Shown piece by piece: positions 16,701 to 53,328 of a stretch of DNA of 64,000 bases. The stretch covers positions 26,507-90,506 of the forward strand of contig JAYPHU010000012.1 in assembly GCA_038127535.1 (NCBI GenBank), in the 5' to 3' direction. Source of the DNA: Rhodospirillaceae bacterium (lineage in GTDB: Bacteria > Pseudomonadota > Alphaproteobacteria > Rhodospirillales > UBA2165). The notes below the pieces were generated by a model that had not been told where the DNA came from, did no database searches, and worked only from the letters and a program-made list of their open reading frames with translations. Numbering within the stretch: position 1 is the first letter of the stretch; every line of letters begins with the position of its first letter. The position numbers and the translations under genes are program-made.

Positions 16701-17359
16701 TCGCGGCGCTCAACGGCAACGGCTCCCTGGCCCTCACTAATATTGATGTTAGTTCCGGCGCCGCCAAAGGTTCCTCCTTCTCCGGCGTCACGGGTCTCTT
16801 GGGCTCCCTCTACGGATTTGCCAGGAAGCTCGGCGGCAAGACCGGCCGGGATGTGGCTGATCTTCGCGGCAATTTCCGGATGGACAAGGGCATCGCCAGC
16901 TTCGACGATTTGACCCTGGTCTCCGGCATCGGCAACGGCTCCGCCAAGGGCGTCGTCGATCTGGCCAATTGGCAAACCAACACCTCGGGCCAGCTTCAGC
17001 TCTCTGACAATCTGGTACTCCAATTGCTGACGAAGTCGTCGGGCCCCCGGCTGATCCCGTTCCAGGTCTCGGGCCGCATGGATGCCCCGAACGTCAAACT
17101 GGACACCAGCGCGTTCACCAGCGGCATCCGGGTGCCGGGTGTGCTGGACAAGAAGATCGAGAAGCTCAAACAGAAGAAAGGCGTGGGCCAGGTTCTGAAC
17201 AAGATTTTCCCCGGCGCTCAACCCGCACCGGCGGCCACCCAAAGCGGTTCCTCAACCGGCGCGCCGCCACCTCAGCAACCGCCACAACAAGAACCGACCC
17301 AGCAAAAGATCAAGCCGGAAGATGTTCTGAAAGGAATACTCCGGGGGCTTACTCGCTGA
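13751..17359 (+). CDS. AsmA family envelope-biogenesis protein
   Basis: ORF 13682..17359. Preferred start is GTG 13751 (VKKLLISIVLVLVALAGAVIAAPNFVDWNKYRDEI), preceded by a GAGGAAACA SD. It has an N-terminal anchor followed by a long repetitive beta-rich body typical of AsmA/TamB-like proteins, and a Pro/Gln-rich C-terminus. Confidence 0.85.
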   Translation: MKKLLISIVLVLVALAGAVIAAPNFVDWNKYRDEITSRVKDATGQDIEIRGDIKIAILPSPAVVVEDVHVANVEGASDADIVSLGSLEVHVALAPLVNKNLQVIRIKLVKPVVNLEIFTKDRANFDIFTNPPAKPAAGGVTPPANPAPSGNTSATGLPADVGGFALRVDSFVVENGSLNYRDRTSGQVEQVKSLNGRFRMVSLNGPMDAEGSVVVRGIPLSFSADIGEIVEKRTLPFRLAVTVIPGDVKTRFNGAVSGIDKQPRLKGQLAIDGANLREFAAGVADGAALPDMLAKPFSLLANVAATEKLAEMSGLGFELNGSKGTGRVSLEMGKTIDLDVGLTLNKFDLDRLLAPAPAAPKTGKQDAAATATDQGQASLSLGARPSAVKPASGSTGLAALPANLNATVNLGIEALTYNRQAIRQAKFNADLSNRELTLNQVSALLPGNSDVALFGFVSQDGDKAQFDGSVDFSTNDLRSLLDWAGVKVDGIAQDHLRKLSIAAKVSGNPDSVSLTEIQTQADNTKLTGAATVALRARPSIGANIAIDRVNLDAYLPKAAAPAAVSSSKPSPSASGAQPAKPAAAAPAANPLAVLGALGGVDFNLKAKLGSLTFQDQRVSGISVDSILVNGDLTFKDCSVRNFAGVSAKVKGGITGLRSTGGAPDPAFKDFNVSLFGKSLARLFKISGITPPVSPAKLGPVSVSTTLNGKPAELRLASLVNATGGQFSMNGTASGLTGLPTFNGQIRLTHKDFDRVLSLLNVVYRPASGKFGPIDVAGKISANPGGVAMTSLAGEAAGVKFAGDAGVQWLGPRPAITADLKTGTLNINNLLPKTNTAKRSSGTRVAASSNSRSSRRASAPREGGRWSTEPIDLSALITFDANVGLSSPKVIYDKASVENLILAGVLKNGILDVRRLTGNMLGGDVKMDAKVIASQGSGQYQTRFSVSRLSVPAALTVYGNRSLKSGTMELVGDFRTSGRSEADMIAALNGNGSLALTNIDVSSGAAKGSSFSGVTGLLGSLYGFARKLGGKTGRDVADLRGNFRMDKGIASFDDLTLVSGIGNGSAKGVVDLANWQTNTSGQLQLSDNLVLQLLTKSSGPRLIPFQVSGRMDAPNVKLDTSAFTSGIRVPGVLDKKIEKLKQKKGVGQVLNKIFPGAQPAPAATQSGSSTGAPPPQQPPQQEPTQQKIKPEDVLKGILRGLTR

Positions 17360-18063
17360 CGTCTTGCCCCTGGGCCCATTTGGCGACCCGGTCGATCCAA
17401 AAAGCTTGCGGCGTATAAAAAAGCCCGTGGCCCTCACCGGTTTTCAAAACGATTTCCCGAAATTCGGTATGACTGGCCTGGGATATCGCCGCATCATAGG
17501 AACCGGAAATCTCGTCTTCGGCATCATACATGCTTAAAAAAAAACCGCCCCTGAATTTGTGGGCCAATCCGCTGAGCAACCCGCCGAAACCGCCGGCCGA
17601 ATTGTGGACCCACCCCGCAGCCGGCCAAATTGACGAAATTCACTTTGGGGTTCTGAATTTGGGATGAGGCAATCAGCGTCATCATGCCGCCCTTCGAATG
17701 CCCGCCCACGGTAATTTGAGTTGCGGGCACCCCGGCGCTGAAAAGCTGTTTGACGAGCTGAGCCACGCCCGCGGTATATGCCGGCGGACGCACTCGGTCC
17801 TCCCGCACTTCGCCGATGACTTACAGCCCCTTGGCTCGAAAGGCATCGAGAATTTCGTCAAATTCGTGGCGCTTTCCGTATTTAGGATGTTCCCTGCTCT
17901 GGCCGTGCATTTCCGGCCATCCCCCATGCAAATAAATCAGATAGCGTTTCGCCGGATCAATTTTGGCGGGCAATTGACCCTGGGCGGAAACAGGCGCCGA
18001 TCCGGACAGGATCCAAGCGACGGCAAACAGGTTCAGCAAAACAACGCGTGTTAAAACATGCAT
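17349..18063 (-). pseudogene. Secreted alpha/beta hydrolase, disrupted by one in-frame TAA and one frameshift
   Basis: Three ORF fragments: 17821..18063, 17524..17808 and 17349..17579. The first two share a frame and are separated only by TAA 17821-17823 (..AFRAKGL*VIGEVRED..). It has a signal peptide and the nucleophile elbow GGHSKGG. The frame switches around 17600-17640 and continues ..SAGGFGGLLSGLAHKFRG... Confidence 0.7.
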
Positions 18064-18075
18064 GTTCTCCTCCTC

Positions 18076-18309
18076 CTATTTTAAAGGTGGGGACTCTTTA
18101 AGCGCGGTCAAGACGTAAACCCGTAAGGCGCTCGACAGATTGCCGGAGCGGGCGTCATCGATCTCCGCCACCAGCTTGCCCAGGGAAAGTCCACGCCGGG
18201 CGGCGATCAGCTTTAACTCGCGCCAAAACGCGTCTTCCAGGGAAACGCTGGTCCGGTGACCGGAAATCAAAACCGAATGCTTTCGGATCGTGCTGGGATC
18301 ATCCGCCAT
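18076..18309 (-). CDS. Ribbon-helix-helix domain protein (RHH_4-like)
   Basis: 77-aa ORF. RKHSVLISGHRTSVSLEDAFWRELKLIAARRGLSLGKLVAEID resembles the small RHH proteins common in Alphaproteobacteria. Confidence 0.75.
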   Translation of the reverse strand: MADDPSTIRKHSVLISGHRTSVSLEDAFWRELKLIAARRGLSLGKLVAEIDDARSGNLSSALRVYVLTALKESPPLK

Positions 18310-18328
18310 CGGACACGCGTCGTCGGCC

Positions 18329-19387
18329 TTACGTCAGCCGCCAGGCGGTCAGCGCGCCGACAAGCGCGCCGTTGAGCAGGCAGGCGACACCAAACAGGTA
18401 CAGCCCCCGGCCGACATCCCGGGGCGTCGCCATGGCGGTGCCGTCGCCGATCCAGGATTCATGGACGTTTTCCTGGGCAAACCTTCGCGGCCCGGCCAAG
18501 GTCAGGCCCAAGGCCCCGGCCATCGCCGCCAACGGCCAGCCGATATTGCGGGACCGGTGCTTGCCCGCATCCCGGAACATGATCACCAGTGATTTTGCCG
18601 GGCTGACCGTGGGCACAAACAATGACGCGACCAACACGAACAGGCCGGACAGCAGCGCCGGTACAAATAGCAAAATATCGTTAAGCCGCGCCGCGGTGAA
18701 TCCGAACGCCCGGTACTTCACCGTCTTTCGGCCGATCCGGCTATCGAGAATGGAATTCGCCTTGAAAATCAAAAGGCCGGGAAAGCCGAAGAGCACATAC
18801 CAGAACACCGGGCCCAACACGCCGGCGGCCAGAGTCTCCGCGCAGGCTTCGATCCCGGTACGCGCCACATTGTGGGCGTCCATTTTTTCCACCGACTCGC
18901 TGGTCAGCGGCGCCAGGGATTGCCGCGCTGTTTCCACCCCGTCGTCCCGGAGCGCCTTACCGATCTTCCTGACCTGGGCGTAGGTGCCCCGCTGGTCGAT
19001 CAACATCATGATCAACAGCGCTTCGAAGGCCCAGAACATGGGGATCGTCTGAGACAGAAACGCCACCGTCCAGCCGAATACCACGCAGACCAGCACTAGC
19101 AGGAGAGTAAAAACCGCACCGCGCACCGCCCGGTCGGTCTGTGACCGGGTTTCCCGGTTCAGTTTGCGATCGCACCAGTCGGCGTAAGCAGTCAGCAGCC
19201 GCATCGGATGCACGCTCAAGTCCTTCAGCGCGTTCCATTGACCCGCATAGGCCTCGACCACCATCGCCAGCAACAGCAAAATCAGCGGATCGAAGCCGCC
19301 CGGCCGGTCCATAATGCCGAACAGTCCCATGGCGGCAGAATGAGCGGGATACGGCCCGCCGTCAATCTTCTGGCTGGTCTTGATCAC
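18329..19387 (-). CDS. cobD: CobD/CbiB family adenosylcobinamide-phosphate synthase
   Basis: 352-aa membrane ORF with CobD-like architecture. The start is ambiguous; an alternative ATG lies at 19330 (MGLFGIM..). Confidence 0.85.
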   Translation of the reverse strand: MIKTSQKIDGGPYPAHSAAMGLFGIMDRPGGFDPLILLLLAMVVEAYAGQWNALKDLSVHPMRLLTAYADWCDRKLNRETRSQTDRAVRGAVFTLLLVLVCVVFGWTVAFLSQTIPMFWAFEALLIMMLIDQRGTYAQVRKIGKALRDDGVETARQSLAPLTSESVEKMDAHNVARTGIEACAETLAAGVLGPVFWYVLFGFPGLLIFKANSILDSRIGRKTVKYRAFGFTAARLNDILLFVPALLSGLFVLVASLFVPTVSPAKSLVIMFRDAGKHRSRNIGWPLAAMAGALGLTLAGPRRFAQENVHESWIGDGTAMATPRDVGRGLYLFGVACLLNGALVGALTAWRLT

Positions 19388-19435
19388 CCCGGCAGAGCAA
19401 CGTAAGAGTGGGCGCGATTGGAGAGACGTTTCATC

Positions 19436-20083
19436 ATGCCGATCCGCAAAGCTATTCTCGTTCTAGGGCTGGTGATCCTGTTGGTCGCCGGCGGCCTGTC
19501 GACCGTGTTGTGGCTCGGCGGCGGTAATATGGCCGGCAACGATCAGATCATGGTGGTCAACAAGGGCAGCCGGCCGAACGAGAATGCTTCCTCTGCGCCG
19601 CCCGTGGGCGGGCCCTTCAATCTGATCAATGGCGACGGAAAGCTTGTATCCAACGAGGACTTCGCCGGTCAAAACATGCTGATCTTCTTCGGCTTTACCC
19701 ATTGTCCGGACGTCTGCCCGCAAACCCTGTCCACATTGACCCGCGCGTTGGAGCTAATCGGCGATGATATCGACAAAGTGCAGCCGGTCTTCGTCACGGT
19801 CGATCCGTTGCGCGACACGCCGGACGTGGTGAAAGCCTATGTAGCCGATTTTCATCCCAAGCTGATCGGGCTGACCGGCACTTCCCGGCAAGTGAGCGCC
19901 GCCATGCGCGCCTACCGAATCTATGCCGCGAAAATGGGCGATGAGCTTCACATCAAATCCGATTACCAGGTGGACCACACATCCATCACCTACCTGATGG
20001 GACCCGACGGGGCGTTCAAGACCTTCTTTTCCTTGGGCGATTCCCCGGACTCCATCGCCACGAAGCTTCGTTTAAATCTTTAA
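19436..20083 (+). CDS. SCO1/SenC family copper chaperone / thiol-disulfide oxidoreductase
   Basis: Carries the FGFTHCPDVCP motif and an N-terminal membrane anchor. ORF 19418..20083 trimmed to ATG 19436. Confidence 0.9.
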   Translation: MPIRKAILVLGLVILLVAGGLSTVLWLGGGNMAGNDQIMVVNKGSRPNENASSAPPVGGPFNLINGDGKLVSNEDFAGQNMLIFFGFTHCPDVCPQTLSTLTRALELIGDDIDKVQPVFVTVDPLRDTPDVVKAYVADFHPKLIGLTGTSRQVSAAMRAYRIYAAKMGDELHIKSDYQVDHTSITYLMGPDGAFKTFFSLGDSPDSIATKLRLNL

Positions 20084-20120
20084 CTGGGCAAGTCCCGACC
20101 GGCCGGTGTAAACAGGACCC

Positions 20121-20627
20121 ATGTCTTCGGGCCCCTCACAACCGTCTGCCGCCAGCGATGCGGACGACGTTCCTTTCTGGAAACGGAAGTCCCTTAAGGA
20201 CATGTCCCTGGACGAGTGGGAATCCCTTTGCGACGGCTGCGCGCGCTGCTGCCTGCACAAGCTGGAAGAAGAAGACACCGGCGAGGTCTATTACACCGAG
20301 GTGGCGTGTTCGCTCCTGGATATCGGAAGCTGTCACTGCAAGGATTATGTAAACCGCACGCTGCTGATCAGCGATTGCGTGGAACTGACGGCCACCAATC
20401 TCAGCGGGCTCAAATGGCTGCCGCCCAGTTGCGCTTACCGGCTGCTCTACGAGGGCAAGGATTTGTACTGGTGGCATCCGCTGGTTTCCGGCGATCCTGA
20501 CACCGTGCATCAGGCCGGTATATCCGTGCGCGGGCGCGCTATTGCGGAGGAAGACACAAACGATATCGAGGACCATATCGTCGACTGGCCCGACCAGATC
20601 CCGAACAGTCCGAAACCGGAGGAATGA
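20121..20627 (+). CDS. ycgN: YcgN family cysteine-cluster protein (UPF0260)
   Basis: The sequence [44 protein letters not shown] is the characteristic YcgN pattern. Confidence 0.85.
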
Positions 20628-20634
20628 ACGTCCG

Positions 20635-21336
20635 GTGACCGAACAGATCATACGGATGGATATCAAGGGCCGGGTCATCCCGGTCCGGCTGCGCCGCAAC
20701 AATAAGGCGCGGCGGATCATCCTGCGGGTGGATCAGGACATCGACGGCGCGGTGCTGACCCTGCCCCGCCGGGCGGCGGAAGCCGAAGCCCTCGCGCTAT
20801 TGAAAGCGCAGTCATCGTGGCTGCTCGACCGGCTCGACGGGATGCCGCCTCGGGTGCCGTTCGCCGACGGCGCCGTCATTCCCATTCTAGGCGACGGTCA
20901 TTTGATCCGGCACGTGCCCGATCTCCGCGGCGGCGTGATTCGCGAGGCTGGCGACATTAAAGTCTCCGGCCGGATCGAACATCTCCCCCGCCGGGTCCGG
21001 GATTGGGTGCGCAAGGAAGCGCGGGCCGCTATCGAGCCCGTCGCCGACGAATTTGCCCGCCGGCTTGATCTTAGGTTCGCGAAGATTTCCGTGCGCGACA
21101 CCAAGTCCCGCTGGGGAAGCTGCGCTGCGTCTGGCAACCTGTCCTTCAGCTGGCGGCTGATCATGGCGCCCCAACGGGTGCTGGACTATGTGGTGGCTCA
21201 TGAAGTGTCCCATCTGGCGCACATGAACCACGGCCCAGCCTTTTGGCGCACGGTAGCGAGCCTCGATGTGGAGACGGACCGGGCCCGCGAATGGCTCAAC
21301 CGGGAAAGCGCCCGGCTCCATCGGATCGGCTCTTAA
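20635..21336 (+). CDS. YgjP-like M48/DUF45 zinc metallohydrolase
   Basis: HEVSHLAHMNHGPAFW carries the HExxH motif. ORF 20542..21336 trimmed to GTG 20635; an alternative ATG lies at 20656. Confidence 0.8.
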   Translation: MTEQIIRMDIKGRVIPVRLRRNNKARRIILRVDQDIDGAVLTLPRRAAEAEALALLKAQSSWLLDRLDGMPPRVPFADGAVIPILGDGHLIRHVPDLRGGVIREAGDIKVSGRIEHLPRRVRDWVRKEARAAIEPVADEFARRLDLRFAKISVRDTKSRWGSCAASGNLSFSWRLIMAPQRVLDYVVAHEVSHLAHMNHGPAFWRTVASLDVETDRAREWLNRESARLHRIGS

Positions 21337-21386
21337 TCAGGTGGCGCAAGCTTCGGATAGCGCGCTCAATATGGGATGACTAAAGT

Positions 21387-22250
21387 ATGCCCATGAACAA
21401 GATCAGCACCCCACGCCAATCCCCGCACGCCGACACGGTTCGCCGCGTTTGCGAGATCATCAATGCGGCGGAAGACGGCGCGCCCACCCTGGCCGAGCTT
21501 GGCCGGGCGGTGGACCTCAGCCCCTATCATCTGCAACACATTTTCAAGAAAGCGACCGGCATGTCGCCCTGGGACTATGCGGACTCCCGGCGGGAAACCC
21601 GGCTGAAGGAAGAGCTCCGCAAAGGATCGAACGTCACCGACGCCATGTATGAGGCCGGTTTCAGCGGCCCTAGCCGGCTCTGCGAAAACGCCAAGTCCCG
21701 CCTGGGCATGACGCCGGCCAGTTTCGGCAAAGGCGGCAAGGGCGCGGTCATTTCCTACGGGTTCGGTCAGTGTAGTATCGGCCACGTCATCGTCGCCGCT
21801 ACCGAGCACGGAATTTGCTTCGTCGGATTCGGTGACTCGGAGCCGGATCTGATCGGCGAGTTGGCGGCCGACTATCCGGCGGCGGAGCTGCGGGAAGACG
21901 CGGACGCGGTTTCGGCACTGATCGATGTCGTTGCGGCGCTAACCGATCACGGCGCCGCGCCGGCCATCGACGTCGCCATAGACGTTCAGGCCACGGCGTT
22001 TCAGCGGCTGGTCTGGGATACGCTCCAATCCATCCCCGCCGGCCAGACCATGACCTACGGCAAAATCGCCGAAGCCATCGGCAAGCCCAAGGCAGCCCGC
22101 GCCGTCGGCTGGGCCTGCGCCACCAATCCGGTCTCCATGGTCATCCCATGTCACCGGGCAGTAGGCTCGACCGGCGCGCTGACCGGTTATCGTTGGGGCA
22201 CGGCACGAAAAAGTGCCCTGCTCCGCTCGGAGCAAGGGCGCTCTCCGTAA
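21387..22250 (+). CDS. AraC-type HTH fused to methylated-DNA-protein-cysteine methyltransferase (Ada/Ogt-like)
   Basis: The N-terminal half is an AraC HTH (LAELGRAVDLSPYHLQHIFKK). The C-terminal half is an MGMT domain with the active site PCHRAV. Confidence 0.88.
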   Translation: MPMNKISTPRQSPHADTVRRVCEIINAAEDGAPTLAELGRAVDLSPYHLQHIFKKATGMSPWDYADSRRETRLKEELRKGSNVTDAMYEAGFSGPSRLCENAKSRLGMTPASFGKGGKGAVISYGFGQCSIGHVIVAATEHGICFVGFGDSEPDLIGELAADYPAAELREDADAVSALIDVVAALTDHGAAPAIDVAIDVQATAFQRLVWDTLQSIPAGQTMTYGKIAEAIGKPKAARAVGWACATNPVSMVIPCHRAVGSTGALTGYRWGTARKSALLRSEQGRSP

Positions 22251-22263
22251 AGAAGATTACGGG

Positions 22264-22539
22264 TTACTTGTCTTTGGAAACTTGATCCACACCCGCGCCG
22301 GCGGCAATCGCGCCACCGCAGACCAGCAGAGCCGGCGGGAAGAAGGCAATGGCGACGCCGCACGCGGCAACACCGGTGCTCACACCAGGATTTTCCTTCA
22401 CCGTCTCAACGGATTTATCCACGGCATTTTCGACCATGCCTTTATCGTTCATTTCCTTTTTGGCGTGGCTCGCCGCGAAACCCTGGGAAACGAAGCTAAT
22501 CATCGCAAGGGCGGCAACCGTCATCGTAAGAAAGCGCAT
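22264..22539 (-). CDS. Small secreted/membrane hypothetical protein
   Basis: ORF 22264..22632 trimmed to ATG 22539 (MRFLTMTVAALAMISFVSQGFAAS..), with a GGAGAG SD 6 nt upstream. It has a signal peptide and a Gly/Ala-rich hydrophobic C-terminus. Confidence 0.5.
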   Translation of the reverse strand: MRFLTMTVAALAMISFVSQGFAASHAKKEMNDKGMVENAVDKSVETVKENPGVSTGVAACGVAIAFFPPALLVCGGAIAAGAGVDQVSKDK

Positions 22540-22628
22540 ATTCATCTCTCCGAAGTCACTAAAAATGTTTAACCTAGAACGCCTGCGACCAGTATAGCCG
22601 AAAACATCCCGTTTGGGCCAACACCTAT

Positions 22629-23090
22629 TCAAATCTGCAGGTCTAATGTCCGGTGCAGCCGGTCAGCGGCGGTTTTGGCGAACCGCACATGCTGGGTCTT
22701 CCTACGGGCGGCATTCATGGATACGACCGGCGCCTCCCGCAAGACCGCGGCATTGTAGGCATCCGCGATGATAATCCCGCAGTCCTCCGGCAGAATTTCC
22801 ACCGGGAACCCGTTGGCCACGGCGAAATAGAGTTGATCGCCAAAGGGCTGATACTCCGGCCATTTGTTATCGGCCTTAAAATCCGGCACCGAGGATTTCA
22901 CCTCGACAATGACGAATCGCCCGCCCTTGTCCAAACCGATTACATCCACCCGCCGGTTGGTTTTCAGTTTAAACTCGGTCAGCGGACTGTAGCCCAGATT
23001 GCGGAGATACCGGCAAACTCCGCGCACGATGTCATCGGCGGCGAACGGTCCCAGGACCGGCAAATCCTCCTCATATTCGAATTTGTTCAT
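22629..23090 (-). CDS. mmcB: MmcB family DNA-repair protein (PD-(D/E)xK nuclease-like)
   Basis: 153-aa ORF. RRVDVIGLDKGGRFVIVEVKSS fits a restriction-endonuclease-like core and resembles Caulobacter MmcB family proteins. An SOS box lies upstream. Confidence 0.75.
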   Translation of the reverse strand: MNKFEYEEDLPVLGPFAADDIVRGVCRYLRNLGYSPLTEFKLKTNRRVDVIGLDKGGRFVIVEVKSSVPDFKADNKWPEYQPFGDQLYFAVANGFPVEILPEDCGIIIADAYNAAVLREAPVVSMNAARRKTQHVRFAKTAADRLHRTLDLQI

Positions 23091-23124
23091 GAAAAGTTCT
23101 CCCCTAACCCTTAGCTATACGATA

Positions 23125-23139
23125 GAACAAGCCGCGAAC
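23125..23139 (-). promoter_or_regulatory. Alphaproteobacterial SOS (LexA) box GAAC-N7-GAAC upstream of mmcB
   Basis: GAACAAGCCGCGAAC at 23125-23139, 35-49 nt upstream of the mmcB start. It is an exact match to the direct-repeat consensus GTTC-N7-GTTC on the gene strand. Confidence 0.5.
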
Positions 23140-23184
23140 GCAAGTTTCCTGGAAACACCGGCGGCCTTGGCCTACTCTACCGCC

Positions 23185-23619: not shown

Positions 23620-23623
23620 CCCG

Positions 23624-25762: not shown

Positions 25763-26116
25763 ATGACAAATGTCTGGCGGGTGCTGGTCATCGACGAAGA
25801 TATGGGCGTGCATGCGGAAGTTGGGAGGGCGCTTCGTGCACTGAAAGTCACTGACATTCAAAGCGCCACCTCGACCCAGCAGGCGCTTTCCATGCTCAGC
25901 CAATTCCGGGCCAATCTTATCATTCTGGATATCCAGATCAGGGTTGCGGCCGGGCTGAACTTCCTGCGCATGCTGCCCGCCGGTCAGACTGAAGCCGACA
26001 GGCACATGCCGGTGGTAGTTATCGCTCGCAACATGGATCAGGAGCTAGGGCAGAAGTCCTGTGACTCGGGCATTCACAATTTTATTCGTAAGCCGCTCGT
26101 GGCGGAAAATCTATAG
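25763..26116 (+). CDS. Response-regulator receiver domain, ending abruptly inside helix alpha-5
   Basis: VLVIDED .. LIILDIQI .. IRKPLVAENL then TAG. The acidic pocket, the phospho-acceptor Asp and the conserved Lys-Pro are all present. Only 6 residues follow KP. The next gene lies in the same frame (see findings). Confidence 0.75.
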   Translation: MTNVWRVLVIDEDMGVHAEVGRALRALKVTDIQSATSTQQALSMLSQFRANLIILDIQIRVAAGLNFLRMLPAGQTEADRHMPVVVIARNMDQELGQKSCDSGIHNFIRKPLVAENL

Positions 26117-26173
26117 AAACGCCTGGCGTCCACGCTAAAGAAGCCAACACGGCTGATCGCCGCCGCCAAACCG

Positions 26174-26788
26174 ATGTCGGCCACGGTGGAATCCCCGACG
26201 GCCAAGCCACAGGCGAAGGCCAAAACCGGCGGCGGCATTGAGGCGGCAGCCCCGGCCAAGACAAAGAACGACAAGGACAGTTGGCAAGACGCGCTGGGCG
26301 ATGCCCAGAAGAAAGCGAAAGCCAACGAGGACCTCGGCATTGATGTGGCGGCGGTTGTTTCCGGTCACGAAGCCTGGCTGGCCAGCAAGGGCGCTCAGGG
26401 TGAGAAAGCGAGTTTGAACAAAGCGGAACTGGCCGGGGCCGATCTGTCGGGGGCCAATCTGGCCAGTGCCAATATGCGGGACGCCGACCTGGAAGGGGCG
26501 AACTTGTCGGCGGCCAACTTGTTGGATGTGGATTTACGCAGCGCCAACATTTGCGCCGCTCAGTTGAAGGAAACAACCCTCGATAACGCCAAACTACGCC
26601 ATGCGGAAATGAAGGGCGCGATTCTGCTGGAAGCCGGGCTGAAGGGCGCGGATTTCAAGGGCGCGAACCTGCTCAGCACCGATATCCGGGGCGCCAAGCT
26701 GATGGGCGCGAACTTGACGCAGAAACAGATTGATCAAGCGCGGGGCGATGAGACCACGGAACTGCCCCCCGGTCTTTTCATCAAATAA
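26174..26788 (+). CDS. Pentapeptide-repeat protein
   Basis: It has a Lys/Ala-rich N-terminal linker. This is followed by tandem A(D/N)LxX pentapeptides (AELAGADLSGANLASANMRDADLEGANLSAANLLDVDLRSANI...). Confidence 0.8.
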   Translation: MSATVESPTAKPQAKAKTGGGIEAAAPAKTKNDKDSWQDALGDAQKKAKANEDLGIDVAAVVSGHEAWLASKGAQGEKASLNKAELAGADLSGANLASANMRDADLEGANLSAANLLDVDLRSANICAAQLKETTLDNAKLRHAEMKGAILLEAGLKGADFKGANLLSTDIRGAKLMGANLTQKQIDQARGDETTELPPGLFIK

Positions 26789-34406: not shown

Positions 34407-34784
34407 TCACCCCATGCGCTTGGCTTCCTCGACGGCGTCCTTGAGGCGGGTGGGTTGTTTCAGCACGTCCATCCATTCTTCGAGGGAATTTTCAAGGACC
34501 AGAATCGTCTCTAACTCGCCGGTGGCGGCGTTGAGTTTTTCCAGAGCGGCGGCGAATTACTTAAGCACGCTTGCGGTCCTTCGATCGTCTTAGCTTCCCG
34601 TTGAGGCGGCGTCGTTAATCGCGCCGCTGGGAAAAAAGTATATCGGCTCGGTCACGAATGAAAAGAGGTGAATCGGCAAAATTCGGCACTTACGCATAAC
34701 CACATACGGTTCGATGCCCGGCGCGCGCCACCGTACCCGGCTTACCCGATTTATGAGGCAAGCACGATTGCAGGCGGGACGCAA
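34407..34784 (-). pseudogene. Possible gene remnant carrying two in-frame TAA codons
   Basis: A single frame reads ..FFPSGAINDAASTGS*DDRRTASVLK*FAAALEKLNAATGELETILVLENSLEEWMDVLKQPTRLKDAVEEAKRMG*. The 3' 49 codons look protein-like. The N-terminal part and the start are unconvincing, and no family was recognised. Confidence 0.2.
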
Positions 34785-36345: not shown

Positions 36346-37227
36346 ATGAACCCCAACTCATCCCTTCCCGGTATTTTGCTGATGACCGCGTCGGTGTTTT
36401 TTTTCGCCGCCAAAGACGTGCTGGCAAAGATGGCCGGCGATGCCTATGCGCCGGTGCAGATCATCTGGACACAGTTCGCCTTCATGACGGCGGTCTATCT
36501 GCCGATCCTGGTGGTCAAGTTCGGCTGGGGCATCCTGATCCCCCGGCCCTTAGGCTGGCAGATCGTCCGGGGGCTGTGCATCGTCACGGCCATGGGCCTG
36601 TTGTACTGGTCGCTGATCCTGATCCCGCTGGCCGACGCCACGGCGATGGCCTTTACCGCGCCGTTGATCGTCACCGCGCTGTCGCCGCTTTTATTGGGCG
36701 AGAAGGTGGGCTGGCAACGCTGGGCAATGGTGATCCTGGGCTTTTCCGGCGCGTTGATTCTGCTTCGCCCGGCCTTTACCGGCGACGGAATCGGCTACAT
36801 CGTCGGTTTCTTTGCCGGCGTCTTCATGGGAGTCTTCTATGCGCTGAACCGGAAGCTGGCGACCGCCGCGCCGCCCATCGCCTCAATCGCCTATGCCGGC
36901 TACATCGGCGTGATCGCGGCGACCCCGTTCACCGTGTTCAACTGGACCCCGCCCCAGGAAGGGGACGGCTGGATCATCTTCGGCTTTGTCGTCCTGGCGG
37001 CCATCGGCCAGACGCTGCTGATCTCCGCCTTCCGCTATGGCCAGGCCAGCCTGGTCGCACCGTTTCACTATGTGCAGATACTTGCCGCCACGTCGTTCGG
37101 CTGGATGTTCTTTGAACAACTGCCGGACGGCTACACCTGGCTTGGCGTGGCCATCGTAGTCGGCTCCGGGCTCTACATTGCGCTCCGGGAAGCTCAACAA
37201 TCCTTGGACGCCGCGAGGGCCGGCTAG
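36346..37227 (+). CDS. DMT superfamily transporter (two EamA domains)
   Basis: 293-aa, 10-TM-like ORF with EamA-type composition. Confidence 0.88.
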   Translation: MNPNSSLPGILLMTASVFFFAAKDVLAKMAGDAYAPVQIIWTQFAFMTAVYLPILVVKFGWGILIPRPLGWQIVRGLCIVTAMGLLYWSLILIPLADATAMAFTAPLIVTALSPLLLGEKVGWQRWAMVILGFSGALILLRPAFTGDGIGYIVGFFAGVFMGVFYALNRKLATAAPPIASIAYAGYIGVIAATPFTVFNWTPPQEGDGWIIFGFVVLAAIGQTLLISAFRYGQASLVAPFHYVQILAATSFGWMFFEQLPDGYTWLGVAIVVGSGLYIALREAQQSLDAARAG

Positions 37228-37757
37228 GATTTATCCAGCACACTCTGGGTTAGCTGCACCAGCAGCTTGGGTAAGAACGGGTCTGACTGCTCCACGTGCT
37301 TGATCGAACCGAACGCATTGAACAGCCGCTAGTCATCCAGACAGAGGGCGCTCAAAACGGTGATTCGGCTTTCGGAATTGCTCAGGTTCATTGACCCGCC
37401 CTTGCACAAGTCTTCCCCGTCATCGCCCTCGGCAGCAACAAAGGCAATATGATAAACGAAGTTGGAGACGCCAGTCTCCGCCGGGTTCTGGGTGAACCGC
37501 AAGACCGGCGCCTGAGCGGAACCGGCGATATGCTTCACCACTTCGTCGGCAAACGCGCCGCCGGCATTGCCTTAGGGGCTGCCCTGGACCTTGACCAGAA
37601 TGGGACCCTTGGATTGAACATAGGTGATGGTCTAGGCGACAATCGGTCCGGCGCTGTGGCCTTCGACGATGGTCGGCGCCTCATCGCAGCCTACAAGCGC
37701 CAGAAGGCCGACCAAAAGACCGCCCCGGCTGAAAAACTTCTTTCCGAATGTGCTCAT
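37224..37757 (-). pseudogene. Lipoprotein gene interrupted by three in-frame stops (TAG, TAA, TAG), with no frameshift
   Basis: ATG 37757 gives MSTFGKKFFSRGGLLVGLLALVGC, with a lipobox. The same frame then continues through TAG 37632-37634, TAA 37572-37574 and TAG 37329-37331 to the terminal TAG 37224-37226. The sequence looks protein-like throughout (..GNAGGAFADEVVKHIAGSAQAPVLRFTQNP.. ..RLFNAFGSIKHVEQSDPFLPKLLVQLTQSVLDKS). Confidence 0.65.
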
Positions 37758-43386: not shown

Positions 43387-44328
43387 ATGGCCAAACCCCA
43401 CGTCCTTATCAACGCGCCGATCACCGACGAGAACCGGCAACGGCTGAGCCCAGACTATGAACTGCACTTCATCGAAGAGGCCCCGGACCGGGATGCCTTT
43501 CTGTGTGAGGTCGGCGGCGATATTCAGGCTATCATCACCGACGGGCCCAGAGATATCGACAAGGCGTTGATGGACCGACTGCCGAAACTGGCGCTGATTG
43601 CCGGCATGGCCGTCGGCGTCAACCGGTTTGATCTGGCCGAGGCGGAAAAGCGCGGCATCACCATCACCAATGCCAGCGGCACCAACGCTGCGAGCTGCGC
43701 AGACCTAGCCATGGGGCTGCTACTCTCCGTCGTCCGCAAGATTCTGCCTAATGACAAACTGATGCGCTATGCGGGCGGGGACGAGAACGGGCCCAAGATT
43801 TTCTCCGACACCATCACCGGTAAATGCGTCGGCATCCTGGGTCTGGGGGCCATCGGCGGCGCGTTTGCCACGCGGGCGGCGGCCTTTGATATGGAGATCG
43901 CCTATCACAACCGCCGGCAAAAAAATGTGCCTTACGCTTATTACCCGGATGTTCCGTCCCTGGCGGCCAATGTCCGCCATCTGATGGTGAGCTGCCCCGG
44001 CGGCGAGGAAACCCATCATCTGGTCAACGCCGAAGTCTTGGACGCCCTGGGACCCGACGGCGTACTGATCAACATCGCCCGGGGCTCCGTCGTCGATACG
44101 GCGGCGCTGGTGACCGCGTTGGAAGCGGGAACCATCGCCGGCGCGGGTCTGGATGTGGTGGAAGGCGACGAGGCCGATCTACAGGCACTCTGCAGGATGG
44201 ACAGTGTGGTCATGACGCCGCATCTGGCGGGCAACACGTTTGAGGCGGAGCAGGCCCGAAATGAGCTGGTCGCCGATATCCTGGACGATTTTTTCTCCGG
44301 CCGGCCGGTGGCCAACAAAATTCTGTGA
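43387..44328 (+). CDS. 2-hydroxyacid dehydrogenase (glyoxylate/hydroxypyruvate reductase-like)
   Basis: 313-aa ORF with GILGLGAIGGAFA, LINIARG and TPHLAG. Confidence 0.88.
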   Translation: MAKPHVLINAPITDENRQRLSPDYELHFIEEAPDRDAFLCEVGGDIQAIITDGPRDIDKALMDRLPKLALIAGMAVGVNRFDLAEAEKRGITITNASGTNAASCADLAMGLLLSVVRKILPNDKLMRYAGGDENGPKIFSDTITGKCVGILGLGAIGGAFATRAAAFDMEIAYHNRRQKNVPYAYYPDVPSLAANVRHLMVSCPGGEETHHLVNAEVLDALGPDGVLINIARGSVVDTAALVTALEAGTIAGAGLDVVEGDEADLQALCRMDSVVMTPHLAGNTFEAEQARNELVADILDDFFSGRPVANKIL

Positions 44329-45814: not shown

Positions 45815-45856
45815 GGTTTTTTCCAAAAATACCAATATGCACCCGTAATGCGCGAG

Positions 45857-45979: not shown

Positions 45980-46022
45980 GATGCAATAACGGCAAAATAA
46001 GTGATACGACGAAGATTGCACC

Positions 46023-46901: not shown

Positions 46902-46917
46902 ACTTGTCAGCCAACGA

Positions 46918-49203
46918 TCACGCCGGCTCGACGAAACTGTCGATGACCTTCTTGGTGCCGGCCTTGTCGAACGCCACTTCCAGCTTGTTGCCGTCAGCGG
47001 CGATCACCTGGCCGTAGCCGAACTTCTGATGAAACACCCGCGTGCCCTCGGAGAACTTGGCCTCTTCCCCGCCCGAAGCGACCAGCCAGGCATCGCCTTC
47101 GACCACCATGCCGTCGCGGGTGTGGCCGGCGCGCTTGGGCGCGTGGGTGCCAGGCTCGAACGTAAAGCCGCTGTCCTGGCGGAACCCGCCGCCGCCCCTG
47201 AGATTGCCGTAGAGCCCGGCTTCGGCGATCTGTTCGACATTGTCGTCCGGCAATTCGTCGATGAAGCGCGAGGGTAGCGCGTTCTGCCACTGGTTATAGA
47301 TGCGCCGGTTGGCGGCGAAACTGATCCGCGCCTCTTTCTTAGCCCGCGTGATGCCCACATAGGCGAGGCGGCGCTCTTCCTCCAGGCCGCGCAGGCCCTC
47401 TTCGTCCAGGCTACGCTGATGGGGGAACAGGCCTTCCTCCCAGCCGGGCAGGAACACCGTGTCGAACTCGAGCCCCTTCGCCGCGTGCAGAGTCATCAGG
47501 CTGACCTTTTCCTCGGCGTCATTCTCGTCGTTCTCCATCACCAGGCTGACATGCTCCAAAAAACCCTGTAGGTTTTGGAACTCATCCAAGCCGGCCACCA
47601 GCTCCTTCAAGTTTTCCAGCCGGCCCGGCGCTTCGGGTGATTTGTCCCGCTGCCACATTTCCGTATAGCCGGACTCGTCCAGAATGATCGCCGTCAGCTC
47701 GTCATGGGGCAGCACGTCCATGTTCAGCCGCCAGCGTTCAAAATCCTGGATCAGGCTTTTCAGCGCGTTACGCGCCTTGGGTTTCAGCTCGTCCGTATCG
47801 ACGATCATGCGCGCTGCCTCATATAACGGCATGCCTTGGCCCCGCGCCAGATAGTGAATGGCCTGCAGGCTGGCCTGGCCCAGGCCGCGCTTGGGCACAT
47901 TGACGATCCGCTCGAACGCCAGATCATCATCGGGGCTGATCAACACCCTTAGATAAGCAATGGCGTCGCGGGTTTCCTGACGCTCATAGAAACGCGGGCC
48001 GCCGATCACCCGATACGGGATCCCCAGCGTGATCAGCCGCTCTTCGAATTCGCGCGCCTGGAAGCCGGCGCGGAACAGCACCGCCATTTCCTCCAGGGAA
48101 TGACCTTTGGATTGGCGAGCCTCGATCTCATCACCGATAACGCGGGCTTCCTCCTCCCCGTCCCAAACCCCTTGGACGGCGACCTTCTCCCCGGTCTCCA
48201 TACCCGTCCAAAGCGTCTTGCCGAGCCGGCCATCGTTGTGGGCGATAAGACCCGAAGCGGCAGCCAGGATATGGGGCGTGGAGCGGTAGTTTTGTTCCAG
48301 CCGGACCACCTGCGCGCCATCGAAGTCTCTCTCGAATTTAAGTATGTTGCCGACCTCGGCGCCCCGCCAGGAGTAGATCGACTGATCGTCATCGCCGACG
48401 CAGCAGATGTTCCGATGCTCCTGCGCCAACAGCCGGAGCCACAGATACTGGGACACATTGGTGTCCTGATATTCGTCCACCAGGAGATAGCGGAACTTCT
48501 GCTGATACTGATACAGCACGTCCGGGTTCTCGGTAAACAGCGTTAAACAGTGCAGCAGCAAGTCACCAAAGTCGGCGGCGTTGAGGGTCGCAAGCCGCGC
48601 CTGATACTCTTCATACAGTTTGGTGATGATGCCGTCGGCAAATTCGGCGCCTTCTTCAGCGGTGACTTTCACCGGTGTCAGACCCCGGTCCTTCCACCGT
48701 TGGATGACGCCCAGGAGCACCCGCGCCGGCCATTTCTTGTCATCGATCTGATGGCCTTCCATCACCTGCTTCAACAGCCTGATCTGATCATCCGTATCCA
48801 GAATGGTGAAGTTGGGTTTCAGCCCGATCAACTCCGAATGCGAGCGGAGAATTCGTGCGCCCAGGGCATGAAACGTGCCGAGCCACCAGCCCTCAACCGG
48901 CCCGCCGATCAGGCTGGCCACCCGCTCCCGCATTTCACGGGCGGCCTTGTTGGTAAAGGTGACAGCGATGATTTCCCACGGCCGGGCTTTTTGGTTCACC
49001 AGCAGGTGCGCTAGCCTTGTGGTCAACACCCGCGTCTTGCCGGTGCCTGCGCCGGCCAGAACCAAAACCGGGCCGTCCAATGCCTCAACCGCTTCCCGCT
49101 GGGCCTCGTTCAAGGTCTCCAGATAAGGTGGTGGCATCGCGGGATCGCGCCGGGCGGGCGGCGGCGGCGCGGGCTTGTCGCTGAGTTCAAATGGATCGGG
49201 CAT
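46918..49203 (-). CDS. uvrD: UvrD/Rep/PcrA family ATP-dependent DNA helicase
   Basis: 761-aa ORF with AGAGTGKT (Walker A), VDEYQDTN, TLHAAKGLEF and VGITRA helicase motifs. Confidence 0.93.
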   Translation of the reverse strand: MPDPFELSDKPAPPPPARRDPAMPPPYLETLNEAQREAVEALDGPVLVLAGAGTGKTRVLTTRLAHLLVNQKARPWEIIAVTFTNKAAREMRERVASLIGGPVEGWWLGTFHALGARILRSHSELIGLKPNFTILDTDDQIRLLKQVMEGHQIDDKKWPARVLLGVIQRWKDRGLTPVKVTAEEGAEFADGIITKLYEEYQARLATLNAADFGDLLLHCLTLFTENPDVLYQYQQKFRYLLVDEYQDTNVSQYLWLRLLAQEHRNICCVGDDDQSIYSWRGAEVGNILKFERDFDGAQVVRLEQNYRSTPHILAAASGLIAHNDGRLGKTLWTGMETGEKVAVQGVWDGEEEARVIGDEIEARQSKGHSLEEMAVLFRAGFQAREFEERLITLGIPYRVIGGPRFYERQETRDAIAYLRVLISPDDDLAFERIVNVPKRGLGQASLQAIHYLARGQGMPLYEAARMIVDTDELKPKARNALKSLIQDFERWRLNMDVLPHDELTAIILDESGYTEMWQRDKSPEAPGRLENLKELVAGLDEFQNLQGFLEHVSLVMENDENDAEEKVSLMTLHAAKGLEFDTVFLPGWEEGLFPHQRSLDEEGLRGLEEERRLAYVGITRAKKEARISFAANRRIYNQWQNALPSRFIDELPDDNVEQIAEAGLYGNLRGGGGFRQDSGFTFEPGTHAPKRAGHTRDGMVVEGDAWLVASGGEEAKFSEGTRVFHQKFGYGQVIAADGNKLEVAFDKAGTKKVIDSFVEPA

Positions 49204-49377
49204 GGGCAGATCTTACCACGCCGCCTTGGGCGGTCTAAAGACAAAGGACCAAAAGCGCGACAATCCTGGGCGTTTTTGAAGCCCCCTTCACGCTTTCGTG
49301 GCCGGGCCACATTCCCTTTGACTCGAATCGCGGATAGGCCCACTCTTTCTGATCGATTTTTTGCGGAGGATTGTGCC

Positions 49378-50400
49378 ATGACCGTTCATCCCGCCCTTCG
49401 GCCGGTCCTTATCACGCTTGCCGCCCTCATTCCGCTTATCCTGATGTCCATCGCCATCCCCGCCGCCGCCCAATCCACCGACAAGGACGTGCTGCAGGCC
49501 GTCGTCGGCGTGAAGACACAGATTCCCCAGGACGCGCGCACCGCCAGTTTCCTGGGCCGGGAACGGGAAGGCAGCGGCATCGTCATCGACGATCAGGGCC
49601 TGGTGCTAACCATCGGCTATCTGATCCTGGAGGCCGACAGCGCGGTCATCACCGGGCCAGACGGCAAACAAGTTCCCGCCTCCATCGTGGCTTATGACCA
49701 TGAAAGTGGTCTGGGTCTGTTGCGCCTGTCCGGAAAACTCGCCATCAAGCCCATGAGGCTTGGCAGTTCTACCGCCGTTAACCTGCAGGACAAAGTCCTG
49801 GTCGCCAGCCGGGGCGGCGACCGTCCGGTGATCATCACCGAAGTCGTGTCCCGCCGGGTGTTCACCGGCGGCTGGGAGTATCTTCTGGAGAACGCGATTT
49901 TCACCTCCCCGCCCCATCGGTTCCATAGCGGCGCGGCCCTGGTCGGCGAGGATGGACGGCTGCTGGGCGTAGGCTCGCTGTTTGTCGGCAATGCCGTCGC
50001 CGCGAACGTCATGTCGCAGGGCAATATGTTTGTGCCGGTGGATGTGCTGAAACCGGTGCTGGCCGATCTGCTGCAAACAGGACGCCGCAGCGGCAAAAAA
50101 CGTCCCTGGCTGGGGGCGAACACGTCGGAGCACCGGGGCCGGGTGTTCGTCGACCGGGTCAGTCCCGGCGGCCCGGCAGCCGAGGCCGGCATCTCCGCCA
50201 ACGACTTGATCATGGGCGTCAACGGCACGCCCACCAACGGTCAGGCGGATTTTTACCGGAAGCTCTGGGCGGCGGGGGAAGCCGGCGGCACGGTCAAACT
50301 GAACGTTCTGCCCGAGGCCGGCGCGGATTTTAAAGTGAAGGAAATTCCGGTGACCACCGGTGATCGCTACGAATGGTTGAAGCTGGGCCGATCGTTCTAG
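49378..50400 (+). CDS. Secreted S1C (trypsin-like) serine protease with C-terminal PDZ domain
   Basis: ORF 49276..50400 trimmed to ATG 49378 (a GGAGGA SD lies upstream). It has a signal peptide, GSGIVIDDQGLVLT, HSGAALV, and PDZ-like PAAEAGISANDLIMGVNG. Confidence 0.85.
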   Translation: MTVHPALRPVLITLAALIPLILMSIAIPAAAQSTDKDVLQAVVGVKTQIPQDARTASFLGREREGSGIVIDDQGLVLTIGYLILEADSAVITGPDGKQVPASIVAYDHESGLGLLRLSGKLAIKPMRLGSSTAVNLQDKVLVASRGGDRPVIITEVVSRRVFTGGWEYLLENAIFTSPPHRFHSGAALVGEDGRLLGVGSLFVGNAVAANVMSQGNMFVPVDVLKPVLADLLQTGRRSGKKRPWLGANTSEHRGRVFVDRVSPGGPAAEAGISANDLIMGVNGTPTNGQADFYRKLWAAGEAGGTVKLNVLPEAGADFKVKEIPVTTGDRYEWLKLGRSF

Positions 50401-50402
50401 GC

Positions 50403-52184
50403 CTACAAATGCCCCTCATGCTCCTCGCGGCGGGTTTCCACCAGCGCCCGGTTGTAGGCCGCCAGAACATCCGCTTCATAGAGCGTGCCCACATACGTCA
50501 TGTTCTCATGATTTTCGACCACGGCGATGTAGTGTTCCCCTGACTCGCGGAACACCCGGTTGGCGATCTCCAGATTATCCGTCGCGTCCAGCACCGGCGG
50601 ATGGGTCCGCGCCACGTCGCCGGCATTGATAAGGTTGTCCACGTCGTGATCGAAAGCGATGTCGCTGAGATCGGCCAAGGTAATGGTCCCCACAAGTTCC
50701 GAGCCGTTGCGCACCACAAACAGTTCCCCGATCTCGGAATGTTGGAGTTTTTGGCGGACGTCTTGTAGGCCGGTGCCGACGTCAATGGTTTCTCCGGATT
50801 TCTTCATGACTTGACGGACCAAAATGCTCCGTAGCAGGGCTGTCTCGAAGCCGTGCTTTAGGTCCAGGCCGGCGCGCTCCAGCTGCCAGTTAAAGAACGA
50901 GCCCCTGGCAAACTGATTGGAAATCAAGGATGCGAGGACCACCGCGACCATCACGGCGATGGTGAGCGAGTAGTCATCCGTCATCTCGAAGATAATTAAT
51001 ACGGTGGAAATGGGGGCGCCCATAACCGCCGCCGCCACGCCGCCCATGCCGACAATGGTATAGGCGCTGGGTCCCGACGACAGATGGGGAAACACATCGG
51101 TCGCAATGATCCCATATGCGCCGCCGAGCATTGCGCCGAGCATCAACGCCGGCGTGAACACGCCGCCGCCAAATCCGCCGCCGACGGAAATTGCCGTCGC
51201 CGCCGTCTTGGCCATCACTAGCAAAATCAGCAGCGCCAGGGAATATTCCACCTTGAGCGCCAGGTCGGTAGCGTCGTAGCCGACGCCCATGACCTGCGGG
51301 AACACCAATGCGATCAGTCCCACTAAAAAGCCGGCGATGCCAGGTCGCACCCATTGCGGGCCGGGCATCTTTTTGAATTGATCCTCGGTGAACATGGTGG
51401 CCCGCATCAAGATCACCGCCACCGCGCCGCACAAGAGGCCGAGCCCGACCACAGCGGGAAACTCGAGATACGAGACCAGGGGATTTTCCAGAATCTCGAA
51501 CGCCGGGAAGTTGCCGAAGAAGATCCGGGAGATTATGGTGCCGACTACGCTGGCGATGACGATGGGGGCAAAGGCGCTGAGCGCGAAATGACCGATCACC
51601 ACCTCATGGGCGAACAGCGCACCCGCGATAGGCGCATTAAACGACGCGGCCACCGCCGCCGCCACGCCGCAGCCTAAAAGACAGCGGGACATGGAACGGG
51701 TGAGATGAAGCCGCCGCGCAATCACCGAACCGATGGTCGCGCCCAAGTGAACAGCCGGGCCTTCACGGCCGACCGACGTGCCGACGCCGATGGAGCCGAT
51801 ACTGGCAACGGCGGCGCCGAGCCCCGCCCGGAACGACATGCGGCCGCCCCGTAGCGCGCTGGCCTCAATCACGGACGCCACACCTTGGTGCCGTCGGTCG
51901 GGCATTATGTAATAGATGAACAACCCGATGACCAGGCCGCCAAAGCTGGGCACGATCAGGACCTGCCACCACGGCGCCTCGGCCACAGCGGCAATCAAGC
52001 TGCCGCCATCGGTTCCAAAAAAAGTATCATGAAGCTCGGTAATGATCAGACGCATTAAGACGGTGCCGAAGGCCGCTGCGGCGCCGACGATCACCGCCAG
52101 GACCGAGAGGATCAGCTGATCGTTGCGGATAAACCGGCGGAAGTGGATCAACCAGCGTAAAGGTGTGCGACGACGGGGGGCCAT
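50403..52184 (-). CDS. ClC family voltage-gated chloride channel with C-terminal CBS pair
   Basis: 593-aa ORF with the GREGP, GVAAAFNAPIAG and GGVFTP selectivity motifs. The CBS-like C-terminus shows HSEIGELFVV. Confidence 0.9.
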   Translation of the reverse strand: MAPRRRTPLRWLIHFRRFIRNDQLILSVLAVIVGAAAAFGTVLMRLIITELHDTFFGTDGGSLIAAVAEAPWWQVLIVPSFGGLVIGLFIYYIMPDRRHQGVASVIEASALRGGRMSFRAGLGAAVASIGSIGVGTSVGREGPAVHLGATIGSVIARRLHLTRSMSRCLLGCGVAAAVAASFNAPIAGALFAHEVVIGHFALSAFAPIVIASVVGTIISRIFFGNFPAFEILENPLVSYLEFPAVVGLGLLCGAVAVILMRATMFTEDQFKKMPGPQWVRPGIAGFLVGLIALVFPQVMGVGYDATDLALKVEYSLALLILLVMAKTAATAISVGGGFGGGVFTPALMLGAMLGGAYGIIATDVFPHLSSGPSAYTIVGMGGVAAAVMGAPISTVLIIFEMTDDYSLTIAVMVAVVLASLISNQFARGSFFNWQLERAGLDLKHGFETALLRSILVRQVMKKSGETIDVGTGLQDVRQKLQHSEIGELFVVRNGSELVGTITLADLSDIAFDHDVDNLINAGDVARTHPPVLDATDNLEIANRVFRESGEHYIAVVENHENMTYVGTLYEADVLAAYNRALVETRREEHEGHL

Positions 52185-52278
52185 AGTTGCCTTTTTATAT
52201 CAGCAGACTCTTATCAAAGTCTAATGCGCTAAACCCGGTCGGGTCGGCCCGATTTCCTAAATCAAAACCGGGGCGCGG

Positions 52279-53328
52279 CTAACTGCTCGCCGCCTTGGCC
52301 AAGGATTCCAAATCGGCCTCGGTTAGAACCTTGTTCCGGCCACTTTTCTTGGCGGCATAGAGGGACATGTTGGCGCGTTCGTTAAATTCGTCGGCCTGCT
52401 CCGCGGGCCGAAACCGGGACACGCCGACCGACAGGGTGATTTTGCCCAAGTCCTGCCCGGTGGACCGGTTCACCACTTTCTTCTTCGGGAGTTGTTCGCG
52501 AATGCCCTCCGCCACCTCATCGGCGTTCTGCAAGTTGGTCTGCGGGAGCAATACCCCGAACCCTTCCCCGCCATAGCGCGCCGCCAAATCTTTGCCCTTT
52601 AGGCCCGTCCGCAGAATGGTGGCCAGCAGTTTCAGAACATGATCTCCGATGAGGAGGCCGAAGCTATCGTTAAACTTTTTGAAGTGATCGATATCTAACA
52701 CCAACAGGCATAAATCCTCATCAGTATCGGCAGCCCGGCTCATATTTTTGCGAACGCGTAGGTCAAACAGCCGGTGGTTGGCCAGAACGGTCAGACCGTC
52801 GGTGGTCGCTTCCCGACGAGTTTCCTCCACCTCTTCGCGCAGCCGGCCGATCTCTCCCGAGGATTGGATCAATTTATTTTCCATGGATTTCTGCCGCGAC
52901 TGCATATCCCGGGTAGCTTACAACACGTCGCGCAGGATTGCCGTCGCATCGGGCTCGGTACCGGACAGATCCTAGGACGCGCCGGCCAAAGTTTCTCCGA
53001 ACTCAGCGGCCTCTGCGCCGGCTTCGTCCAGATAACGCACGGCCTGATCCATAACCTCGTCCAGTAGGACGAAAAAATCCTCCATCTTTGCGGATTCCAC
53101 TTGGGTGGTGAAAAAATTCACGAACAGATCGGTGCACTATTCGTTCGACATGCCGCCGCCGTCCAGAATCTGGTCTACCGTTTTTGTCAGATCAGGGAAG
53201 GCATCCCCGAAATAGCGGTACCAAACCGTAAAGTGACTGGGATAGGGGCGCAACCGAAGCGTAACCATCTTGGCCAAAGCGGCCTCGGCGATAGCCTCGG
53301 GATCAGTTAATTTTTCGGTCTATGCCAA
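52279..53328 (-). pseudogene. Diguanylate cyclase (GGDEF) gene with four in-frame stops, no frameshift, and a degenerate GGEGF site
   Basis: TTG 53328 has a GGAGG SD 9 nt upstream. The frame reads M-A-TAG(53320-53322)-TEKLTDPEAIAEAALAKMVTLRLRPYPSHFTVWYRYFG..MSNE-TAG(53137-53139)-CTDLFVNFF..LAGAS-TAG(52972-52974)-DLSG..RDVL-TAA(52918-52920)-ATRDMQSRQ... It then continues into the GGDEF domain (TDGLTVLANHRLFD..LDIDHFKKFND..RYGGEGFGVLLP). The ORF track shows only 52279..52905. Confidence 0.75.

Follow-up and report, generated by a model that had tools for sequence, protein, structure and literature searches.

The stretch of DNA analyzed here, called the window throughout (64,000 nucleotides; G000:C12:26507-90506), lies in G000, the Rhodospirillaceae genome under study, and contains five genes whose reading frames are interrupted by 11 in-frame TAG or TAA codons. 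These codons very probably arose by genuine nonsense substitution in five genes that are dispensable, dead and drifting neutrally in this marine Rhodospirillaceae species. The stops are real, species-wide and were acquired sequentially; the interrupted frames evolve neutrally; and the genome-wide spectrum of lesions contains frameshifts. Ordinary neutral decay suffices to explain the pattern. The ratio of 11 stops to one frameshift in the window is probably a chance cluster, amplified by the greater ease with which in-frame stops are detected by eye.

The G000 assembly (3.53 Mb, 89 contigs) is a scaffolded draft with 100-N gaps and has the appearance of a draft or metagenome-assembled genome (MAG); its GC content is ~58–60% and its tmRNA is of the two-piece, alphaproteobacterial kind. 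Comparisons were made with two congeners, G001 and G002, with two further relatives, G003 and G004, and with conspecific contigs 99.5–99.9% identical to the window, which were compared as assemblies. These contigs, located via cluster look-ups of near-identical proteins, come from the Logan assemblies SRR26337524, SRR26337526 and SRR26337528, from the NCBI MAG GCA_038108735.1 (‘Rhodospirillaceae bacterium’) and from five JGI metagenomes. The 208-aa GGDEF fragment had no exact match in a protein look-up; intact neighbouring proteins did match.

Lesions of the five interrupted genes

Translation of the five loci confirmed all 11 TAG and TAA codons in their frames. Two further claims of the initial annotation hold: the stops lie on both strands, and none of the five interrupted genes of G000 contains an internal TGA. 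Pfam searches of the window loci identified an Abhydrolase_2 hydrolase, a receiver domain, pentapeptide repeats and a GGDEF domain. The interrupted genes are as follows.

17349..18063, minus strand: secreted alpha/beta-hydrolase pseudogene (Abhydrolase_2 / dienelactone-hydrolase-like, Pfam match), with TAA 17821-17823 and a frameshift
25763..26788, plus strand: broken signalling gene with a CheY-like receiver and pentapeptide repeats, with TAG 26114-26116, in-frame deletions and an early TAA
34411..34640, minus strand: remnant of a small coiled-coil-like open reading frame (ORF), with TAA 34590-34592 (from CAA, Gln) and TAA 34557-34559 (from GAA, Glu)
37224..37757, minus strand: lipoprotein pseudogene with an LLALVGC lipobox, with TAG 37632-37634, TAA 37572-37574 and TAG 37329-37331 and without indels
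52279..53328, minus strand: GGDEF diguanylate-cyclase pseudogene (Pfam GGDEF), with TAG 53320-53322, TAG 53137-53139, TAG 52972-52974 and TAA 52918-52920

The four stops of the GGDEF gene form a nested series among the conspecifics. The codon at 52972 is a stop in all of them and that at 52918 is either TAG or TAA, while 53137 reads CAG in L072 and L073, and 53320 reads CAG in L072, L073 and L063. Since some strains retain CAG at two of these sites, the hits were successive. The G002 orthologue (G002:C48 ~1199-2236) is 84% identical, with no indels in the gene body, and presents CAC, CAG, GAA and TCC opposite the stops at 53320, 53137, 52972 and 52918, respectively; it has an independent TGA of its own where G000 has CGG. 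The catalytic motif, GGEEF in G002, has degenerated to GGEGF in G000 (~52561-52563), an additional inactivating missense change in an already interrupted gene. The gene is intact in many family members and wholly absent from the sister species (L066-L071, ~6630-7012). Within the genus it has been lost independently three times, through TAG/TAA in G000, through TGA in G002 and by complete deletion in the sister species.

The lipoprotein gene carries three stops. Its orthologues in G001 and G002 are intact 187-aa open frames, 81–85% identical to the 177-aa query and indel-free, in which the stops face TCA (Ser, 37632), TAC (Tyr, 37572) and CAG or CGG (CAG encoding Gln, 37329). Four independent conspecific assemblies cover the gene (L062, L063, L072 and L074), and the three stops are fixed among them (4/4). 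In a sister species (88% identity) the lipoprotein gene is called as an unbroken 177-aa frame, which continues past the edge of the retrieved sequence.

The receiver and the pentapeptide repeats form a single frame of 447–477 aa in G001, G002, G003 and G004, which rules out two separate genes sharing a frame by chance. Since the two parts are one gene in relatives, TAG 26114-26116, which lies opposite CAG or CAA (Gln), is a genuine interior stop. In G000 the gene has also undergone a net 294-nt in-frame deletion of the linker near 26162-26183, has lost a 15-nt repeat unit, again in frame, near 26644, and is cut short by three codons through a twelfth stop (TAA 26786-26788) at a Lys codon of the congeners. 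One JGI subgroup (L076-L078) bears a further, frame-breaking deletion of 178 nt (26149-26326) in the dead linker, with 8-nt microhomology. The initial annotation had counted only one indel alongside the 11 stops; the hydrolase frameshift is indeed present, but the count is incomplete, as the net 294 nt and the 15-nt unit are missing as well.

In the small remnant, the frame is open in a single relative, G001 (L080), which has CAA and GAA at the two stop codons. Both sites are stops in conspecifics L077 and L079, that at 34590 being TGA in L077, which also shows a 1-nt homopolymer indel difference at ~34632. No Pfam family and no start codon was identified for this ORF. The hydrolase stop, TAA 17821-17823, is common to conspecific contigs L076 and L079. 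Its +1 frameshift lies in an A9 run ending at ~17536 (17528-17536) and is confined to G000, the conspecifics having A8. No orthologue of the hydrolase was found among 20 relatives; intact homologues of 220–250 aa have Val or Glu at the position of the stop, for which no ancestral codon or mutational route is assignable.

Comparison with orthologues thus shows that 10 of the 11 stops replace a sense codon (Gln, Glu, Ser or Tyr). Each of these ten has an assignable route that includes a G:C>A:T or G:C>T:A step, and at 37632, 52918 and 52972 one more base also differs from the congener codon. Transversions (G>T, C>A) make up about half of the changes that created the stops.

Recurrence of the stops and neutrality of the frames

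All 11 window stops, and 7 outside it, recur across JGI, Logan and NCBI MAG contigs in a congruent or nested pattern, and this sharing of lesions is seen in assembled contigs from different samples and sources. In three multi-stop genes outside the window (adenylate-cyclase-like, DUF2336 and Sel1-like), 7/7 stops and one frameshift are common to independent conspecific assemblies. The stops also cluster by gene: in the genome-wide census described below, five genes have at least two stops, compared with 0.44 expected (P<5e-5). Such clustering in particular genes contradicts random error and fits dead genes.

Variation within the species bears on whether the interrupted frames still encode anything under selection. 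They contain 65 single-nucleotide polymorphisms (SNPs), distributed over the three codon positions as 24/23/18, with 46 non-synonymous (3 of them touching stops) and 19 synonymous changes. The intact neighbouring genes have 269 SNPs, distributed as 68/32/169, with 99 non-synonymous and 170 synonymous changes. The non-synonymous share is therefore 71% in the interrupted frames versus 37% in the intact ones (Fisher odds ratio 4.2, p=1.3e-6). The even spread over codon positions and the high non-synonymous share indicate that the interrupted frames are unconstrained, including the receiver that looks like a stand-alone protein. Between species (G000 versus G001), stop-bearing genes have a ratio of non-synonymous to synonymous substitution rates (dN/dS) of 0.09–0.11, against a median of 0.05 (p=3e-8); in the census sample these genes are signalling or accessory genes, and no core genes are hit.

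Genome-wide spectrum and alternative explanations

The census compared filtered gene sets from 796 kb of G001 with G000 by reciprocal tblastn, a ~20% sample comprising ~570 genes. Its strict form leaves out events within the first 60 residues, where ORF heads are over-extended, as well as two spurious ORFs and three scaffold N-gaps that resemble insertions. By this count, G000 has 15 genes with a total of 21 interior stops and 8 genes with a total of 8 frameshifts, versus 3 stops and 2 frameshifts for G001. The lenient form, before filtering, gives 35 stops and 17 frameshifts, numbers inflated by over-extended ORF N-termini and the two spurious ORFs. G000 and G001 are separated by a synonymous divergence (dS) of ~0.7, with a median dN/dS of 0.05; the load of disrupted genes in G000 is ~4x that of its congener, and its coding density is 85.5% versus 89.2%.

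This spectrum recasts the excess of stops over frameshifts from which the initial annotation had argued. The 11:1 ratio is seen in the window, but against a genome-wide 21:8 the probability of 11 stops in 12 events is ~0.05–0.1, a value that treats the events as independent although seven of them sit in two genes and are therefore dependent. The argument that neutral decay would have added frameshifts is essentially refuted, as frameshifts make up a substantial share of the lesions genome-wide. No hidden frameshifted genes were found in the window: each pair of overlapping ORFs there consists of distinct, intact genes. The dead frames have acquired 2 small indels and one 178-nt deletion within the species, versus 65 SNPs. 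Mutational input amounts to ~1–1.5 stops per frameshift, and the between-species census to ~2.6:1.

The probable course of decay is as follows. Once a gene is inactivated, further substitutions accumulate singly. In a genome of ~60% GC in which CAR (Gln), GAR (Glu), TCR (Ser) and TAC (Tyr) codons abound, the common G:C>A:T and G:C>T:A changes lead to TAG and TAA; TGA is rare, having few one-step precursor codons in G000. Small indels arise at ~1 per 20–30 neutral substitutions in this lineage, an input low enough that short dead genes can gather two to four stops before a frameshift. For each gene, the lesion that first killed it is one that we infer. With the codon usage of G000, 3–4% of random substitutions are expected to yield a stop, which is matched by the 3/65 neutral SNPs (4.6%) that touch one. 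The TGA share expected from codon usage is only 15–20%, so the scarcity of TGA (3/35 interior stops in the lenient census) is not significant, and the deficit is ruled out as a sign of UAR-specific tolerance.

Several observations, modest on the whole, weigh against neutral decay as a sufficient account. Stops exceed frameshifts by ~2–2.6:1 genome-wide, which is more stop-rich than many annotated genomes, and the census relies on a home-made gene caller and on one congener at dS ~0.7. Trp-derived stops number 1/35, fewer than a strand-symmetric model predicts. The lipoprotein gene has three stops, yet only ~1/3 of the changes on the G000 branch fall at codon positions 1–2; we estimate this mild excess of stops over missense changes at p ~0.02–0.09.

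The alternative that survives best, though it is improbable, is an earlier mutator phase or a surge of relaxed selection, in which a GC>AT episode, dominated by substitutions, would have introduced many nonsense changes genome-wide at once. The G:C>A:T or G:C>T:A step in every one of the ten assignable routes would fit such an episode, as would the greater number of stops (21 versus 3) and frameshifts (8 versus 2) in G000 than in G001 and its lower coding density. The initial annotation had raised this possibility, and it was right that local mutational input is dominated by substitutions. However, the GGDEF stops were sequential, two of them being still polymorphic within the species, and neutral SNPs yield stops at the expected rate. 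The four repair genes mutY, fpg, mutS and mutL gave no sign of a mutator genotype: all are full-length, above cut-off and without internal stops, ruling out a defect in them. Moreover, compared with G001, frameshifts are raised about as much as stops, which makes this an excess of pseudogenes in general rather than of stops. Deaminase-driven or RIP-like (repeat-induced point mutation) hypermutation likewise produces multiple indel-free stops, many via C>T at CAR codons. The case of G000 differs in that about half of its changes are transversions, its hits were sequential and the four GGDEF stop contexts show no context bias.

It is very unlikely that the fragments are functional products of fission or truncation (the 117-aa receiver, a pentapeptide protein and a C-terminal GGDEF protein), with the stops kept because the pieces are useful. 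The 117-aa receiver product, ending at the G000 TAG, is called in every conspecific assembly examined, several independent ones among them, and an ATG follows TAG 26114 ahead of the pentapeptide part, as fission would have it. Both parts nevertheless behave as unconstrained sequence within the species, with 7 non-synonymous and 0 synonymous SNPs in the receiver and 5 versus 1 in the pentapeptide part, and one subgroup has the 178-nt frame-breaking deletion. The degenerated GGEGF motif and the deletion of the whole gene in the sister species argue against a useful GGDEF fragment.

Still less credible is partial read-through of TAG and TAA by a suppressor tRNA, weak termination or recoding, under which nonsense codons would be tolerated and frameshifts purged. 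The preservation of the frame after several stops and the near absence of TGA among interior stops recall natural suppression and reassignment systems (amber and ochre suppressor tRNAs, pyrrolysine, TAG-recoded phages). Unlike in those systems, no cognate tRNA was found: none of the 42 tRNAs detected by ARAGORN in the 89 contigs of this incomplete draft has a CUA or UUA anticodon, and tRNA-Sec (UCA) is the only one that reads a stop codon. A tRNA copy could be hidden, as the draft breaks at tRNAs and lacks some of their genes. Yet TAG and TAA are the commonest terminators: called genes end in TAA (1183), TAG (1152) or TGA (860), so that TAA and TAG account for 73%, with the same proportions in G001, and this normal usage rules out a change of genetic code. 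A release-factor defect is ruled out as well, prfA (RF1) being intact and prfB (RF2) normal, with just its programmed TGA. The interrupted genes also bear frameshifts and deletions, are accessory and show no purifying selection, their dN/dS being raised; core genes are unaffected, and codon usage explains the TGA deficit. Even read-through at a low level is all but excluded, given that the SNPs in these frames show a neutral pattern.

Three side observations concern tRNAs and termination in G000. Many of the tRNA genes sit at the ends of contigs, and the expected Tyr, Ile, Ala-UGC and Gly-UCC tRNAs are missing from the draft. The presence of tRNA-Sec is consistent with the selenoprotein candidate in the window. 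TAG is nearly as frequent a terminator as TAA (36% versus 37%) in both G000 and G001; such near-parity is high for bacteria.

Errors of consensus building or base calling in a MAG are an equally poor explanation of the stops: those tested recur, with phylogenetically nested states, in contigs of independent samples, assemblers and sources, are concentrated in particular genes far beyond random placement, and sit in frames that evolve neutrally. What G000 has in common with error-made ‘pseudogenes’ is its draft or MAG appearance (89 contigs, 100-N gaps) and an internal-stop count raised relative to a neighbouring genome, and internal stops may indeed be assembly errors that create spurious pseudogenes (Cooley and Wright 2024, PMC11017572). 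This warning is inapplicable to the 11 window stop sites; only the G000-specific A9 homopolymer frameshift of the hydrolase could be of that kind. In-gene 100-N gaps with duplicated flanks occur elsewhere in G000 (C17 ~11800-11900; C5 ~92934-93036; C4 ~127508-127610) and imitate ~150-nt insertions or frameshifts in homology-based pseudogene calls. Apparent ~150-nt ‘insertions’ in three genes, considered as candidate MITEs (miniature inverted-repeat transposable elements), proved to be such scaffold gaps. In the MAG GCA_038108735.1 (L063), an otherwise intact 2-hydroxyacid dehydrogenase gene (43387-44328) is split into 93 + 217 aa by a 2-nt indel at ~44037, either a new strain-specific pseudogene or a MAG assembly error.

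Pseudogene decay and a possible shedding of signalling genes

Classical unitary pseudogenes, in which nonsense and frameshift lesions accumulate by neutral decay, are known from host-restricted enterobacteria. The interrupted genes of G000 resemble them in having intact orthologues in relatives, at least one disabling lesion, relaxed selection and GC>AT-directed substitutions, in being accessory or signalling genes, and in their eventual deletion, as for the GGDEF gene gone from the sister species. They differ in the ~2–2.6:1 ratio of stops to frameshifts and in that several dead genes stay in frame over 0.5–1 kb. G000 also differs from a host-restricted pathogen or symbiont, its bearer being an apparently free-living marine member of the Rhodospirillaceae. 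Bacterial pseudogenes of this class have been analyzed for their indel patterns (Danneels et al. 2018, PMC6054270).

Neutral decay of dispensable genes accounts cleanly for what might be taken for recoding or suppression, namely many in-frame TAG and TAA codons, frames kept and no TGA, in a GC-rich genome; this is a clean negative for those mechanisms. The combination used here, congruence of lesions across independent metagenome assemblies together with the codon-position spectrum of within-species SNPs, provides a practical way, without access to reads, of telling true nonsense pseudogenes apart from artefacts or read-through.

More tentatively, the species could be at an early stage of genome erosion, shedding signalling genes under an indel-poor mutational regime in which dead genes stay in frame and collect serial stops. 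The signalling genes being shed would be the GGDEF gene, the receiver-pentapeptide gene, the adenylate-cyclase-like gene, a CheY-like receiver with two broken neighbours and the DUF2336 gene. The CheY-like receiver is one of three adjacent disrupted genes at G000 C21:35062-36210, itself interrupted by a TAA; of the other two, both uncharacterised, one has a TAA and the other a frameshift. This suggests that an entire signalling module, possibly for chemotaxis, is decaying. If this erosion is indeed under way, the many co-occurring metagenomic strains would constitute a natural time series of pseudogene decay. The ~4x pseudogene load, concentrated in signalling genes, may reflect a recent ecological narrowing of the species.

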